Position numbers and translations under genes: made by a program
The notes under the pieces: model-generated
The model's database searches: none
What the model saw: only the letters and a program-made list of their open reading frames with translations
Told to the model about the DNA's origin: nothing
Shown here: positions 1 through 8,442 of the stretch, in pieces
How the letters are laid out: each line of letters opens with the position of its first letter
How positions within the stretch are numbered: the first letter of the stretch is position 1
DNA from: Escherichia coli
GTDB lineage: Bacteria > Pseudomonadota > Gammaproteobacteria > Enterobacterales > Enterobacteriaceae
NCBI RefSeq assembly: GCF_036507355.1
Contig: NZ_AP027877.1
Strand: one strand, 5' to 3'
DNA: 64,000 bases

Positions 1-732
1 GTTGGAACGTCGCACATTAGCGCTGATTTACCTTGTCAGGATGCCTGCCAGATGCAGGTTGCCTGGCTAAATGACCAGCAGCCATTACTGGTGATGTTCC
101 TTGCTGATGGCGCAGGTAGCGTTTCGCAGGGAGGAGAAGGCGCGAAGCTCGCCGTCAATGAAGCGATGGCGTTTATGGTGCAAAAAGTACAGGACGGTGA
201 ATTGGGGCTTAATGATGTCCTCGCCACAAATATGGTACTGACCATTCGTCAACGACTTTTTGCCGAGGCAGAAGCCAAAGCATTAGCAGTTCGCGATTTT
301 GCCTGCACGTTTCTGGGATTGATTTCATCGGCTAACGGCACATTGATTATGCAAATTGGCGACGGCGGTGTAGTGGTGGATTTTGGTCACGGTCTGCAAT
401 TACCGCTTACGCCGATGGTGGGTGAATATGCCAATATGACGCATTTCATTACCGATGAAGATGCCGTTTCCAGACTGGAAACTTTCACCAGCACTGAGCG
501 TGTGCATAAAGTTGCAGCATTTACGGATGGTATCCAGCGACTGGCGTTAAATATGTTGGATAATTCTCCGCATGTGCCTTTCTTTACCCCTTTTTTCAAT
601 GGACTGGCGGCAGCAACGCAGGAACAGCTCGATTTATTACCTGAATTGTTAAAGCAGTTTTTGTCCAGCCCGGCGGTAAACGAGCGTACCGATGATGATA
701 AAACGTTGGCACTGGCGCTGTGGTTACCATGA
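1..732 (+). CDS. yegK: PP2C-family Ser/Thr protein phosphatase, 5' end truncated by window edge (frame is open back to position 1)
   Basis: Translation carries PP2C-like motifs (LADGAGS...GGEGA, IGDGG, FTDG); stop overlaps the start of the downstream kinase gene by 13 bp. Confidence 0.75.
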   Translation, partial: VGTSHISADLPCQDACQMQVAWLNDQQPLLVMFLADGAGSVSQGGEGAKLAVNEAMAFMVQKVQDGELGLNDVLATNMVLTIRQRLFAEAEAKALAVRDFACTFLGLISSANGTLIMQIGDGGVVVDFGHGLQLPLTPMVGEYANMTHFITDEDAVSRLETFTSTERVHKVAAFTDGIQRLALNMLDNSPHVPFFTPFFNGLAAATQEQLDLLPELLKQFLSSPAVNERTDDDKTLALALWLP

Positions 733-4167: not shown

Positions 4168-5016
4168 ATGTATACCCTGAACTGGCAGCCGCCGTATGAC
4201 TGGTCGTGGATGTTGGGATTTCTCGCCGCCCGTGCAGTGAGTGGTGTGGAAACGGTCGCTGACGATTATTATGCCCGTAGTCTGGCGGTGGGCGAATATC
4301 GCGGCGTGGTGACTGCTATTCCGGATATAGCCCGCCATACTCTGCACATAAATTTAAGTGCAGATTTAGAACCCGTTGCCGCTGAGTGTCTGGCGAAAAT
4401 GAGCCGCCTGCTTGATCTGCAATGTAACCCGCAGATTGTTAACGGTGCGTTGGGCAAGTTAGGCGCGGCGCGGCCCGGATTGCGTTTACCCGGCAGTGTT
4501 GATGCTTTTGAGCAGGGCGTGCGGGCGATTTTAGGCCAACTGGTGAGCGTGGCGATGGCGGCAAAATTGACTGCCAAAGTGGTACAGCTTTATGGCGAAC
4601 GGCTGGATGATTTTCCGGAGTATATCTGCTTCCCCACGCCTCAGCGGCTGGCAGCAGCAGACCCGCAGGCATTAAAAGCGTTAGGTATGCCGTTGAAACG
4701 GGCAGAGGCGCTGATTCATCTGGCAAATGCGGCGCTGGAGGGCACCTTACCAATGACAATACCGGGCGATGTGGAGCAGGCGATGAAAACGCTGCAAACT
4801 TTTCCGGGTATCGGGCGCTGGACGGCGAATTATTTTGCTTTGCGTGGCTGGCAGGCGAAAGATGTTTTCCTGCCGGATGATTATCTGATTAAACAGCGAT
4901 TTCCGGGAATGACACCGGCGCAAATCCGCCGTTATGCCGAGCGCTGGAAGCCCTGGCGTTCTTATGCGCTGTTGCATATCTGGTATACGGAAGGCTGGCA
5001 ACCAGACGAAGCATGA
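4168..5016 (+). CDS. alkA: 3-methyladenine DNA glycosylase II
   Basis: 282-aa ORF, N-terminus MYTLNWQPPYDWSWMLGFLAARAVSGVE recognised as AlkA. Confidence 0.9.
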   Translation: MYTLNWQPPYDWSWMLGFLAARAVSGVETVADDYYARSLAVGEYRGVVTAIPDIARHTLHINLSADLEPVAAECLAKMSRLLDLQCNPQIVNGALGKLGAARPGLRLPGSVDAFEQGVRAILGQLVSVAMAAKLTAKVVQLYGERLDDFPEYICFPTPQRLAAADPQALKALGMPLKRAEALIHLANAALEGTLPMTIPGDVEQAMKTLQTFPGIGRWTANYFALRGWQAKDVFLPDDYLIKQRFPGMTPAQIRRYAERWKPWRSYALLHIWYTEGWQPDEA

Positions 5017-5023
5017 CGTTGGT

Positions 5024-5109
5024 CGCCGGATGCGGTGCGAGCGCCTTATCCGGCCTGGGGAATGAGCGATTTGTAGGCATGATAAGACGCGTTAGCGTCG
5101 CATCAGACG
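5024..5109. repeat. REP/BIME element (two REP units) between convergent alkA and dgcE
   Basis: gccggatgcggtgcgagcgccttatccggcc and gtaggcatgataagacgcgttagcgtcgcatcagacg match the E. coli REP consensus. Confidence 0.8.
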
Positions 5110-5124
5110 ATGGGGAAGCACGCC

Positions 5125-8100
5125 TCAGTTAATCGCGAAATAACTACTATTCACCAGCAAATCCAGCGGTTGGGCATCGGCAATCACCTCACCATAAATC
5201 AGATCGACGCCGATGCCAGAAAGCGTATCCATCACTAAGGGTAAAACGACTGGCCCGGCGATGGTTTTCATCCCGAGTCGCTGAGCGTGCCCCTGAATAA
5301 TCGTAATCAGCATCTCATCCATCAAATTACCCTGCACGTTGGCGCATAACTCATCATCGAGTAGCAGGTAATCTGCCATATTCGCTTTCAGCGAGTTGAA
5401 GATTTGTAGATCGCGGCCCACCTGACTGAATATGATCCGACATCCCCCCAGCCGCAGTTTTTGCACGCTTTCTGCGTGATCTAAAATCGCTTCAGCCGGA
5501 ATAATCAGATGTAATAACCGTGGTGGTAGAGGGCTATTTTCCAGCTGCTCAAGCAGGTCATTCACCAGCATGGCGCTACTCAAACCGGCAACGGAAAGGG
5601 GGAGGGCGATGCTTATGCCTTTACTGGCAACCGCTTTTGCGGCCTGCTGGAAAAATTCGTGGAATACCCGGCGGTCAAGAGCATGGCTAAGCGCCGGATC
5701 GCTGAAGCTACGACGAAATGTTTGTTCATCAATAATCTCGCCTTCGCAACTCCAGAGCTTAAGTGAAATCAGCCACAAATTACGCGCTTCCGGGATCCGT
5801 GGCGAAGCGACACCGTGGGCGAGCATCATCAACTGATTCTCTTTAATCATCCGCCACTGTTCATCAAGCGACATCGCCGCCCGTTCGCTATGTGCGGCAG
5901 CTTGCTGCGGTTCGTAAACCGTCACCCGGCCCCGGCCACCATTTTTGGAGGCATAACAGGCGATATCAGCCTGCGACATCACTTCTGCCGCCTGATGATT
6001 GTTGTCATCGATCAAGGTAATCCCGGCGCTGGCACCTACCCGATGTACCCGGCCTTCCCATATAAAGTGATAGTCATTCACAGCACTGATAATACGTGTA
6101 GCGATAAAACGAGCGCTTTCAACATTGCAGTCTGGCAGCAGCAGACCAAATTCATCACCGCCGAGCCGCGCCAGCACGTCACTGGAGCGCAGCATACTCA
6201 GCATCAACGACGCCAGTTCGTGCAGCAAAGCGTCGCCCGCCGCATGCCCGGCGCTGTCATTCACCGCTTTAAAGCGATCAAGATCGATAAACACCAGTGC
6301 ATGTCGCTGATGCGTACTGTTTACCGTTTGCAGCAGGATACGCAGTTGTTTCTCAAAACTGGCGCGGTTGGCGAGATGCGTCAGTGCATCATGGGAGGCG
6401 CTGTAGCTCAGCTGGCGCAGCATTTTGCGTGATTCGGTGACGTCCTGAATCACCAGAACCGAGCCTATATTGCTGCCGTCCAGAGTACTTAACGGCGTAA
6501 TACTGTAATGCACGTCGTAGCTGCCGCCGCTCCGGCAGTGCAATACCACATCTTGTTCAATCGCGGAACGTGAGGTGTCGGCACTGTAAATGTTCTCCAT
6601 TAATGGTCCGTTGTCGCCAAAAGTAATATGCAACACCGTCAGGAGCGGAACACCTAATGCTTCTTCCTGCGTCCAGCCGCTCATCTTCTCCGCCACTGGA
6701 TTCATAAAGGTAATTTTCATCGCCATATCAATACAGACCACGGCTTCACCGATGGAATCAAGCGTAATGTGCAGGCGCTCTTTTTCCTGAAACAATGCCT
6801 CGTTAAGCTGTTTAACCTCGGTCATATCCATATTAATGCCGAGCAGACGTTCGACTTCGCCTTCTTTATTCAGTACCCGGTTGGCGAGGGCGCGGATATG
6901 GCGGATGCCATCTTTCACAGCAATGCGAAATTCCAGCTTAAAGGGCGAGCGTGATTGCAACGAATCACGAATCACTTTTTCGGCGTGTTGGCGATCTTCC
7001 GGCAATACACACTCGTACCACACCTGCCAGTTCGGTTTGATATGCGGAGGAATTTCATATAGCTCGAACATCCGCTTATCCCAGCTAAAAATATTCGGCT
7101 TCAGCTCCCACTCCCAGATGCCAATCCCGCCCGCTTCGTTAGCCAGCGTGATGCGCTCCATCAGTTGCTGATTGACCTGTTCGGTGCGTTTTAGCTCGTT
7201 AATGTCTTCAATCTGAGCGATAAAATAGAGCGGCGTGCCATCCGTGTGGCGCACCAGAGAGACGGCAAGCAACGCCCAGACAACATCGCCATTGCGGTTG
7301 TAGTAACGTTTTTCCATTGAATAAGTGTTTATTTCACCGCTTATCAGCTTTTCAACCTGTTGGAGATCTTTATTGAGATCCTCCGGCCAGGTCAGTTGCT
7401 GAAAGGTGAGTCCGCGCAGCTCTTCCTGACTGTAACCGAGAAACTGGCAGAGTGCTTTGTTGGATTGCAGCCATTGTCCCTCGGTGCCCACTAACGCCAT
7501 GCCGATAGCGGAATATTCCATCGCGTTTCGAAAGCGGGTTTCGCTTTCGGAAATGTGTTTGCGTTCCGCACGAAAGGCATACATCACCATGGTCATGATG
7601 TTGGCGGGCAGCAGGATCAGCAAAAACGGTAGCCACGGCATATGGCTCATCAGGTATGTACGCGGCGTAGCAAGCAGGGAGGGATCCGCGGCCATCATCA
7701 GCGACACCATCATCACCGTGGTAAGGAAGATCAAAAAGGCTTCCATTCGTGGCAGGCGCACGGCGCTCCACATCAACAGCACAATAATGAAAGTAAAAGG
7801 CCACGGCAGATACAGCATCGAAAGCCAGCTTAACGTCAGTGTGATGGCTAACGTGAGCAGCGACTCAAAAAGCAACCGTGGGTTGCGATGGCGCAGCAGA
7901 TAGTGTGGTTTAAATAACAATCCCAGCGGCACCAGTGCCAGAGCGCCGATGGATTCTGACAGTACCCATATCAAAAATGCCCTGAGAGGATCGTCTCCGG
8001 GCGTCAGCAGGACAACCAGAACACCCCCCAACAGAGGTGGAACAATGGCGCTGCCGAGTGCCAGACGCAGCCAGTCAGCCAGATTTTGCAAGGGGTTATA

Positions 8101-8442
8101 CCACGGCAGCAATTTACGTAGCAGCACTGCCCCGACCACGGCTTCAACAATATTGATGGTCGTCCAGGTCATGTTCAGCGAGCTGGTGGAAAAAAGCAGG
8201 ATGGATGCGGCGATATTTCCCAGCGAACAACTCAGCGCAATTCCCGGCCACATGCGCCCGGCATGGCGATAAAACGCCACCATCATGATGGACGTCGGGA
8301 ACCACAGTGGGGCGAGTTGGGTGCCAAACTGCGAAAGCTCAAGCGAGAAAAGGGTAAAGATAAACGAGACTAAACCTAAACTGACCAGGTGAAGCAGCGG
8401 GTGGGGCAGGGCAATTAATACATGCTGTGATTGTTTGCTCAT
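5125..8442 (-). CDS. dgcE: Membrane-anchored diguanylate cyclase (MASE1-PAS-GGDEF-degenerate EAL)
   Basis: 1105-aa ORF; hydrophobic N-terminal third; RLGGDEFGLLL GGDEF motif; C-terminal EAL-like domain lacking a canonical EAL motif. Confidence 0.9.
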   Translation of the reverse strand: MSKQSQHVLIALPHPLLHLVSLGLVSFIFTLFSLELSQFGTQLAPLWFPTSIMMVAFYRHAGRMWPGIALSCSLGNIAASILLFSTSSLNMTWTTINIVEAVVGAVLLRKLLPWYNPLQNLADWLRLALGSAIVPPLLGGVLVVLLTPGDDPLRAFLIWVLSESIGALALVPLGLLFKPHYLLRHRNPRLLFESLLTLAITLTLSWLSMLYLPWPFTFIIVLLMWSAVRLPRMEAFLIFLTTVMMVSLMMAADPSLLATPRTYLMSHMPWLPFLLILLPANIMTMVMYAFRAERKHISESETRFRNAMEYSAIGMALVGTEGQWLQSNKALCQFLGYSQEELRGLTFQQLTWPEDLNKDLQQVEKLISGEINTYSMEKRYYNRNGDVVWALLAVSLVRHTDGTPLYFIAQIEDINELKRTEQVNQQLMERITLANEAGGIGIWEWELKPNIFSWDKRMFELYEIPPHIKPNWQVWYECVLPEDRQHAEKVIRDSLQSRSPFKLEFRIAVKDGIRHIRALANRVLNKEGEVERLLGINMDMTEVKQLNEALFQEKERLHITLDSIGEAVVCIDMAMKITFMNPVAEKMSGWTQEEALGVPLLTVLHITFGDNGPLMENIYSADTSRSAIEQDVVLHCRSGGSYDVHYSITPLSTLDGSNIGSVLVIQDVTESRKMLRQLSYSASHDALTHLANRASFEKQLRILLQTVNSTHQRHALVFIDLDRFKAVNDSAGHAAGDALLHELASLMLSMLRSSDVLARLGGDEFGLLLPDCNVESARFIATRIISAVNDYHFIWEGRVHRVGASAGITLIDDNNHQAAEVMSQADIACYASKNGGRGRVTVYEPQQAAAHSERAAMSLDEQWRMIKENQLMMLAHGVASPRIPEARNLWLISLKLWSCEGEIIDEQTFRRSFSDPALSHALDRRVFHEFFQQAAKAVASKGISIALPLSVAGLSSAMLVNDLLEQLENSPLPPRLLHLIIPAEAILDHAESVQKLRLGGCRIIFSQVGRDLQIFNSLKANMADYLLLDDELCANVQGNLMDEMLITIIQGHAQRLGMKTIAGPVVLPLVMDTLSGIGVDLIYGEVIADAQPLDLLVNSSYFAIN

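Follow-up and report, generated by a model that had tools for sequence, protein, structure and literature searches.

What the C-terminal part of DgcE is, and what it does for the enzyme, is the question raised by the dgcE locus of the window (the whole stretch of 64,000 nucleotides analysed here, contig NZ_AP027877.1 of the Escherichia coli assembly GCF_036507355.1). DgcE is a biofilm-signalling enzyme of E. coli, and EAL is a c-di-GMP-degrading domain type. Sequence comparison, a structure model and analogy with published work on K-12 make it highly probable that the C-terminal 240 or so residues are a catalytically dead class-3 EAL-fold domain, referred to below as EALdeg, which is kept as a self-associating regulatory module restraining DgcE.

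The gene and the parts of its product preceding this domain are located as follows.

5125 to 8442, minus strand: dgcE (yegE) coding sequence, 1105 amino acids plus stop (open reading frame list and NCBIfam NF007298)
7561 to 8388, minus strand: MASE1 membrane domain, residues 19 to 294 (Pfam PF05231, 124 bits)
6427 to 7536, minus strand: PAS region with three PAS domains, residues 303 to 672 (Pfam PAS, PAS_3, PAS_4 and PAS_9; NCBIfam TIGR00229 in three stretches)
5929 to 6399, minus strand: GGDEF diguanylate cyclase domain, residues 682 to 838 (Pfam PF00990, 155 bits, profile positions 1 to 160 of 161)
6178 to 6189, minus strand: I-site RSSD (RxxD), residues 752 to 755, five residues upstream of GGDEF (direct reading)
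6148 to 6168, minus strand: intact RLGGDEF active-site motif, residues 759 to 765 (direct reading)

The open reading frame matches the NCBIfam equivalog NF007298 over its complete profile (positions 1 to 1111 of 1111; 2061 bits against a cut-off of 1135) and is flanked by yegD, alkA and udk as in K-12, where the corresponding gene is annotated dgcE in RefSeq. The full-length equivalog match and the conserved synteny identify it as the dgcE ortholog; the gene order alkA-dgcE-udk-dcd, the length of 1105 amino acids and the domain order are the same in both strains. Identity to K-12 is 99.1% for the protein, with 10 amino acid differences, and 97.8% for the gene at the nucleotide level. Of 5426 E. 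coli genomes, 5416 have a gene annotated dgcE, and the window allele is an uncommon one, with no more than 15 of 5418 E. coli records reaching at least 99% DNA identity to it. The preliminary description had called the RLGGDEF motif intact, which is what direct reading gives, and the dgcE entry in Table 1 of PMC11327459 (RSSD/VLARL/GGDEF) is identical to the window allele. Judged by its sequence, DgcE has what an active GGDEF diguanylate cyclase should have: an intact site, a full domain and an RxxD I-site.

Two intervals describe the C-terminal domain, the second being the part matched by the Pfam profile.

5149 to 5868, minus strand: whole degenerate EAL-fold domain, residues 859 to 1098 approximately (AlphaFold2 secondary structure, Foldseek, hhalign)
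5179 to 5751, minus strand: part matched by Pfam EAL (PF00563), residues 898 to 1088, profile positions 39 to 234 of 236

Pfam EAL is found on DgcE with 66.4 bits (E = 3.1e-18, cut-off 31.3) and on the isolated domain with 71.1 bits. These 66 to 71 bits are the lowest among the proteins compared, with 130 for CsrD, 167 for BluF and 112 to 235 for active phosphodiesterases (PDEs). When aligned by hhalign to the active E. coli EAL domains the probability is 97.7% across 248 columns, and phmmer matches to EAL chains of the PDB reach E values down to 3e-6. The AlphaFold2 model has a pLDDT of 90.3 and a pTM of 0.87, with alternating strand and helix elements from residue 859 to 1098; its input alignment included canonical EAL domains, so that the predicted fold depends in part on the assumption of homology. 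The best 50 Foldseek matches of the model in the PDB are all EAL domains (TM 0.69 to 0.83), including those of FimX, RbdA, LapD, RocR and TBD1265. Strong matches from a PDB search with a mixed profile were discounted as independent evidence, as this profile (A2) contains canonical EAL domains. Sequence and model together indicate that the DgcE C-terminus is a true EAL homolog with a predicted EAL barrel fold.

The residues at which canonical EAL domains carry their signatures are the following in DgcE.

5752 to 5778, minus strand: strand beta2, LWLISLKLW, residues 889 to 897, the site of canonical E-A-L-x-R (MAFFT, hhalign, AlphaFold2)
5758 to 5772, minus strand: LISLK, residues 891 to 895, positional equivalent of E-A-L-x-R (alignment)
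5731 to 5748, minus strand: CEGEII, residues 899 to 904, loop and short strand after beta2 (hhalign, MAFFT, AlphaFold2)
5599 to 5601, minus strand: P948, replacing the metal-binding Asn (PdeL N200), identical in 8 of 8 E. coli alleles (alignment)
5494 to 5505, minus strand: IIPA, residues 980 to 983, replacing E-x-x-E (PdeL E232/E235) by I980 and A983 (alignment)
5410 to 5427, minus strand: SQVGRD, residues 1006 to 1011, replacing DDFGTG, the two Asp being S1006 and Q1007 (alignment)
5356 to 5364, minus strand: LLD, residues 1027 to 1029, replacing K-x-D, the catalytic Lys (PdeL K283) being L1027
5245 to 5262, minus strand: IAGPVV, residues 1061 to 1066, replacing A-E-G-V-E, the Glu (PdeL E319) being G1063
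5191 to 5196, minus strand: YG, residues 1083 and 1084, replacing Q-G, the Gln (PdeL Q339) being Y1083

In a MAFFT alignment of 145 sequences DgcE keeps none of nine catalytic or metal-binding residues, whereas all six E. coli PDEs score 8 or 9 and almost every EAL homolog at greater distance scores 9. The roles given to these residues rest on the alignment to the six PDEs, on general knowledge and, for the DDFGTG aspartates, on PA3825, in which they are metal ligands (PMC5301497). At the EAL motif itself the changes in the same alignment are E to L891, L to S893 and R to K895. The last is a conservative change, yet not to the defining Arg; the lysine is found in 8 of 8 E. coli alleles, and most other genera have R at this position. 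Window allele and K-12 DgcE are identical at all catalytic-equivalent positions. A regular-expression search after residue 840 found no E-x-L-x-R, D-[DE]-F-[GA]-x-G, E-[GA]-x-E or K-[LIV]-D, in agreement with the earlier reading that canonical E-A-L-x-R and DDFGTG are missing from the C-terminus. That reading had also named CEGEII as the nearest approach to an EAL motif, which does not hold: CEGEII lies in the loop after beta2, and the true equivalent is L891 to K895. Its interval of 5125 to 5700 covers residues 915 to 1105, approximately 78% of the domain, and leaves both the EAL-motif site and CEGEII outside. The alignment to the Pfam profile, which had been proposed as a check, spans profile positions 39 to 234 only, omitting the motif region, and does not show a full set of catalytic residues.

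Registration of the first part of the domain deserves comment, as the per-column confidence of hhalign is low over the first 50 residues or so. By hhalign the EAL Glu position is W890, which places the motif within residues 890 to 895, and the strand 889 to 897 has no acidic residue. The 145-sequence MAFFT alignment, hhalign and the predicted strand pattern concur in putting non-catalytic residues at every catalytic position, which argues that the preliminary description was right in suggesting a degenerate, non-catalytic domain. A MAFFT alignment of 10 sequences placed QTFRR (907 to 911) under E-x-L-x-R with a deletion of about 24 columns; it hinted at a retained Arg, and a shift by one residue would add a retained Glu (E906). 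This registration was rejected because hhalign and the 145-sequence alignment do without a deletion and set F909 against the Phe of canonical P-x-x-F, because in the AlphaFold2 model residues 906 to 911 are helical and the strands 871 to 880 and 889 to 897 pair as a beta-hairpin, and because residue 898, the first one in the Pfam match, falls on profile position 39. Across the registrations tried, at most the Glu and the Arg of the nine catalytic residues were restored.

Compared with the active PDEs PdeL/YahA, PdeH, PdeR, DosP, RocR and TBD1265, DgcE has other residues at every metal ligand, at the catalytic Lys and in the DDFGTG loop. It shares with them a homologous fold and scaffold residues, those common to EALdeg and active EAL PDEs being F909, D923, G1000, C1001, G1009, D1024, D1042, A1062, G1078 and G1084. 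The barrel scaffold is predicted to persist, but the substrate-contact residues are gone together with the catalytic lysine and each of the metal ligands, and this loss would leave EALdeg unable to hydrolyse c-di-GMP. As a homolog which by its sequence is without signature residues, it fits class 3 (catalytically inactive) of the EAL scheme of PMC3229569. CsrD and BluF of E. coli also have class-3 EAL domains, regulatory rather than catalytic, but they keep 5 and 6 of the nine catalytic residues, respectively, and much higher Pfam scores.

FimX and LapD, whose EAL domains are likewise without PDE activity, bind c-di-GMP. They are among the best sequence and structure matches in the PDB (TM approximately 0.75 to 0.8), so that EALdeg might be a dead but binding receptor giving DgcE C-terminal product feedback; the inhibition by EALdeg seen in vivo (PMC6510439) could be explained by such product sensing, and the EALxR Arg position still has a basic residue, K895 in this allele and R in most of the other genera. 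We consider this improbable. RbdA, RocR and TBD1265, which are active, match the model about as well, and because active enzymes score equally the ranking of FimX and LapD is uninformative on binding and was rejected as a sign of receptor identity; sequence identity to the two is only 18 to 21%. The canonical contact residues are absent: measured against nucleotide contacts known in general from EAL structures, not derived from FimX or LapD themselves, the Q of QP is H876, the L of EAL is S893, N is P948, the first D of DDFG is S1006, EGVE is GPVV and the Q of QG is Y1083. The binding positions are also described as degenerate in PMC6510439, and the intact RxxD I-site already offers DgcE product inhibition. 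Binding of c-di-GMP by EALdeg in the canonical mode would, from these replacements, very probably be impossible.

The degenerate state extends far beyond this allele. All relatives scoring at least 85 bits carry between 0 and 2 of the nine catalytic residues in the 145-sequence alignment. Orthologs at 39 to 65% identity keep SQVGRD, AGP and YG, the first as S-[QHR]-[VI]-G-[RH]-[DE] in the enterobacterial ones. The Salmonella ortholog has approximately 65% identity in the domain, and a C-terminal fragment from Salmonella (P0013) has the same degenerate residues; other genera differ from E. coli by the Arg already mentioned and by an insertion of four residues following the ILDHAE position. Complete copies of the domain persist in different genera down to about 28% identity. 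One homolog search gave mostly gene fragments, and full-length relatives came from a representative search only. The degenerate clade has its own signature, consisting of NLMDEM, IIxGHAQR, IAGP and a C-terminal SYFAIN, and part of it is a predicted helix.

5278 to 5328, minus strand: clade-specific conserved helix NLMDEM...IIQGHAQR, residues 1039 to 1055 (positional match to the helix after the K-x-D strand)

AlphaFold2 predicts a helix here at 1040 to 1056. Across 24 sequences of the degenerate clade, conservation reaches at least 90% at M1041, D1042, E1043, G1051 and A1053, and in this clade it does so at A, G and P of IAGP as well; canonical EAL domains are without NLMDEM...IIxGHAQR and SYFAIN.

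Within E. coli the domain is the most variable part of the protein. Among eight alleles dN/dS is 0.163 in EALdeg and 0.024 to 0.057 elsewhere in DgcE, and of the 36 polymorphic residues 19 fall in the domain, which makes up 24% of the length. It also has six of the 10 differences between the window allele and K-12 (S946A, T958M, A999G, V1004I, L1005F and G1030D; Fisher p about 1e-4 to 8e-4), and given these six its quantitative behaviour could differ from that in K-12. A protein-level evolution 3 to 7 times faster than in the rest of DgcE, together with this concentration of polymorphisms and K-12 differences, is what would be expected of a functionless remnant drifting towards loss, but to this we give hardly any credence. 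The dN/dS ratio is far below 1, neither stops nor frameshifts in dgcE were found among the eight alleles, different genera have kept the complete domain with invariant clade-specific blocks, the AlphaFold2 model is confidently folded, and deleting the domain affects the phenotype strongly (PMC6510439). By these sequence measures constraint on EALdeg is relaxed but still purifying, and the degenerate state is old, conserved and not decaying.

The clade-conserved surface helix and the C-terminal SYFAIN, with no counterpart in canonical EAL domains, may also be read as contact surfaces. The degenerate EAL proteins BluF and CsrD of E. coli act through macromolecular partners. With this precedent, and DgcE being an interaction hub contacting several PDEs and diguanylate cyclases (PMC5635695), EALdeg might serve chiefly to dock proteins of the c-di-GMP 'supermodule' such as PdeR, DgcM or other PDEs, instead of a self-dimerising brake. 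This too seems very unlikely to us, in that the published data (PMC6510439) point to a domain that associates with itself and influences the oligomers of DgcE, and docking is in any case compatible with a self-dimerising brake and not exclusive of it. Somewhat less doubtful, though still improbable, is that the face which once held the active site was rebuilt, with the helix next to it, as a new conserved binding surface (NLMDEM, IIxGHAQR, IAGP and SYFAIN) for a specific partner or small ligand, which would set the threshold of the curli/cellulose switch. If so, the high turnover in EALdeg (dN/dS 0.16 against approximately 0.03, and six of 10 changes) would represent lineage-specific tuning of the threshold and not mere relaxation.

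For the self-associating regulatory module that we favour, homology, predicted fold, residue loss, conservation and selection were computed here, and inhibition, dimerisation and the effect on oligomers are taken from the literature. Pfiffer et al. 2019 (PMC6510439) described the EALdeg of K-12 DgcE as degenerate, dimerising and inhibiting DgcE by opposing oligomer formation: its deletion hyperactivates the DgcE pathway, the domain gives a two-hybrid dimerisation signal, and DgcE without it forms larger complexes and is more abundant. By analogy, EALdeg of the window allele would self-associate and keep DgcE in check by counteracting higher-order oligomers, the form in which its GGDEF domains produce c-di-GMP; in that work, too, the steric-dimer mechanism is no more than a hypothesis.

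The preliminary description called a degenerate domain consistent with what is known of DgcE, and degeneracy has indeed been published for K-12 (PMC6510439). The Salmonella Typhimurium ortholog of YegE, STM2123, is likewise a diguanylate cyclase whose EAL domain is without the active signature (PMC3229569). The non-catalytic EAL-like domain is here confirmed for a slightly divergent allele, and what is added is modest detail, namely the exact positional equivalents of the catalytic residues, how deep the degenerate clade reaches, and selection on the domain that is relaxed but still purifying. A comparison with chance has no meaning for an absent motif; the remarkable point is that a domain recognised by Pfam EAL with E = 3e-18 has nevertheless every catalytic residue gone. 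That this domain should be unable to degrade c-di-GMP matters for how DgcE is read: as purely a cyclase ending in a regulatory tail, instead of a bifunctional protein.

The interval 5125-5700 lies inside a single long minus-strand ORF (window 5125-8442, 1105 amino acids), matched end to end by the NCBIfam equivalog NF007298 for a diguanylate cyclase (2061 bits, cut-off 1135). As in K-12, this dgcE gene has yegD, alkA and udk as neighbours. The copy is intact, shares 97.8% DNA identity with K-12 dgcE and encodes a protein with 10 replacements in 1105 residues relative to K-12 DgcE; the DNA of the gene matches a dgcE-annotated gene in 5416 of 5426 complete E. coli genomes. The features of the protein are as follows.

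Residues 19-294, minus strand: MASE1 (Pfam)
Residues about 303-672, minus strand: three PAS domains (Pfam)
Residues 682-838, minus strand: GGDEF (Pfam, 155 bits)
Residues 752-755, minus strand: I-site RSSD (RxxD), five residues upstream of RLGGDEF
Residues 759-765, minus strand: RLGGDEF motif, intact as the preliminary description had it
Residues 898-1088, minus strand: EAL (Pfam, 66.4 bits, cut-off 31.3)
Residues ~859-1098, window 5149-5868, minus strand: folded degenerate EAL domain (EALdeg; AF2 model)

The RSSD I-site and GGDEF of dgcE have likewise been tabulated elsewhere (PMC11327459).

The allele is uncommon: just 15 of 5418 E. coli records reach 99% DNA identity or more, most lying at 95-99%, and the closest match is strain GDSC2227PM (vegetable, Guangzhou, 99.5%). 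The probable origin of the window is an E. coli lineage that has been sampled less. Deposited dgcE products are often fragments, such as a 296-amino acid "putative sensor protein" of Shigella sonnei (747 member sequences) and 150-amino acid entries named "EAL domain-containing protein, partial", and in one E. coli strain the match spans only 34% of dgcE. Such entries are in keeping with a published account of dgcE having become a pseudogene in Shigella and in certain pathogenic E. coli (PMC11327459).

Genes alkA (ending at 5016) and dgcE (ending at 5125) are convergent, with a gap of 108 bp. Imperfect palindromes of the type GCCGGATGCGG...CGCCTTATCCGGCC in this gap (window 5023-5110) resemble REP (repetitive extragenic palindrome) units and may be such elements. 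Upstream of yegD, ORFs 52-732 (226 amino acids) and 720-2669 (649 amino acids, the counterpart of K-12 protein kinase YegI) share a strand and overlap by 13 nt. An 88-amino acid plus-strand ORF (window 5570-5836), antisense within the EALdeg coding region and supported by its openness alone, is probably spurious.

The C-terminal domain of DgcE is a genuine EAL domain. The significant Pfam EAL match begins at profile position 39, skipping the motif region, and phmmer against PDB sequences returned EAL chains (best E = 3e-6), the sole exception being a marginal CurA hit (E = 0.21). An AF2 model of residues 845-1105 reached a mean pLDDT of 90.3 and a pTM of 0.87; it depends in part on the homology call, because its 35-sequence input alignment included canonical EAL domains. 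With this model, the best 50 Foldseek matches in the PDB were all EAL domains (TM 0.69-0.83), including FimX, RbdA, LapD, Bd1971, TBD1265, RocR, MorA and PA3825. The 5125-5700 bounds first proposed for the domain were too narrow, covering only residues 915-1105.

As had been claimed, canonical signatures are missing: a pattern search of DgcE after residue 840 found no E-x-L-x-R, D-[DE]-F-[GA]-x-G, E-[GA]-x-E or K-[LIV]-D. The string CEGEII, cited as the closest approach, does occur (residues 899-904), at window 5731-5748 and so outside the interval assigned to it; the EAL-motif site itself (residues 889-897, window 5752-5778) also falls outside. A 10-sequence MAFFT alignment placed QTFRR (907-911) under E-x-L-x-R across a 24-column gap. 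It was overruled by a gapless N-terminal registration common to profile-profile alignment, a 145-sequence MAFFT alignment and the AF2 secondary structure, in which 871-880 and 889-897 form the beta-hairpin bearing QP and EALxR, with EQTFRR forming the helix of the canonical P-x-x-F. This puts L891 (W890 by hhalign) at the EAL glutamate position and K895 at that of the arginine, where most other genera do have Arg; strand 889-897 holds no acidic residue. From the N-site column (PdeL N200) onward all alignment methods agree.

PdeL N200: DgcE P948
PdeL E232 and E235: DgcE I980 and A983
PdeL D262 and D263 (DDFGTG): DgcE S1006 and Q1007 (SQVGRD)
PdeL K283: DgcE L1027
PdeL E319 and E322: DgcE G1063 and V1066
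PdeL Q339: DgcE Y1083

In the 145-sequence alignment DgcE thus retains 0/9 catalytic residues. By the same count six EAL phosphodiesterases from the K-12 genome (PdeL, PdeH, PdeK, DosP, PdeR and PdeG, the last only putatively annotated) retain 8-9/9. The known degenerate K-12 proteins CsrD and BluF retain 5/9 and 6/9. Pfam EAL scores agree with this picture (66-71 bits for DgcE, against 130 for CsrD, 167 for BluF and 112-235 for active enzymes). The window allele is unchanged from K-12 at all these positions. EALdeg is a folded EAL homolog without metal ligands, catalytic lysine or canonical nucleotide contacts, so that no phosphodiesterase activity would be expected, supporting the initial reading of a non-catalytic domain. 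A c-di-GMP receptor of the FimX/LapD type is unlikely, since the c-di-GMP contact residues are lost and active enzymes match the model as well as FimX and LapD do.

Scanning all 1.84 billion representative proteins with the DgcE C-terminus gave 1873 matches. Every relative at 85 bits or more, including full-length proteins of ~1000-1118 amino acids with 28-42% identity, retains 0-2/9 catalytic residues, whereas nearly every sequence under 78 bits keeps 9/9; the DgcE-type domain is thus a distinct, old degenerate lineage rather than a product of recent decay. The DgcE-type clade shares barrel scaffold residues with active EAL domains and has invariant blocks of its own.

Residues 1039-1044: N-L-M-D-E-M
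Residues 1048-1055: I-I-x-G-H-A-Q-R
Residues 1061-1064: I-A-G-P
C-terminal: S-Y-F-A-I-N

Four residues that follow ILDHAE in orthologs of other genera (alignment A1, columns 332-335) are missing from E. coli and its closest relatives, around residue 990 (~5470-5480) in a predicted EALdeg helix.

Across eight E. coli alleles (that of the window, that of K-12 and six more), mean pairwise dN/dS was 0.163 for EALdeg, 0.057 for MASE1, 0.025 for PAS and 0.024 for GGDEF, in a small sample with non-independent pairs and a recombination-blind estimate. Of the 36 polymorphic residues, 19 lie in EALdeg, and so do 6 of the 10 window-to-K-12 replacements (Fisher p about 1e-4 to 8e-4); the catalytic-equivalent positions are all fixed. 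Judged from these alleles, EALdeg is under purifying selection, yet with clearly weaker constraint than the remaining DgcE. Synonymous divergence among the eight alleles was very uneven along dgcE (dS 0.03 in MASE1, 0.13 in PAS, 0.16 in GGDEF, 0.08 in EALdeg), suggesting either that the gene is a recombination mosaic or that its synonymous sites are constrained differently from region to region.

In K-12, deletion of EALdeg makes the DgcE-to-CsgD pathway hyperactive (PMC6510439). This phenotype, the dN/dS of 0.16 and the deep conservation across the clade make a functionless remnant unlikely. The domain on its own yields a dimerisation signal, DgcE without it assembles into larger complexes and is more abundant, and EALdeg dimerisation was proposed to perturb productive oligomerisation sterically (Pfiffer et al. 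2019, PMC6510439). Active EAL domains dimerise via the helix after the DDFGTG loop (PMC5301497). By position, the conserved helix 1040-1056 may correspond to the dimer-side helix of canonical EAL domains, a placement that would suit a role in dimerisation. A docking site for heterologous partners is possible and compatible with dimerisation. The degeneracy accords, as the preliminary description stated, with what is known for DgcE: according to Pfiffer et al. 2019 (PMC6510439), "essentially all" residues for c-di-GMP binding, metal binding and catalysis are absent from EALdeg. It was already known for K-12 DgcE and its Salmonella ortholog.
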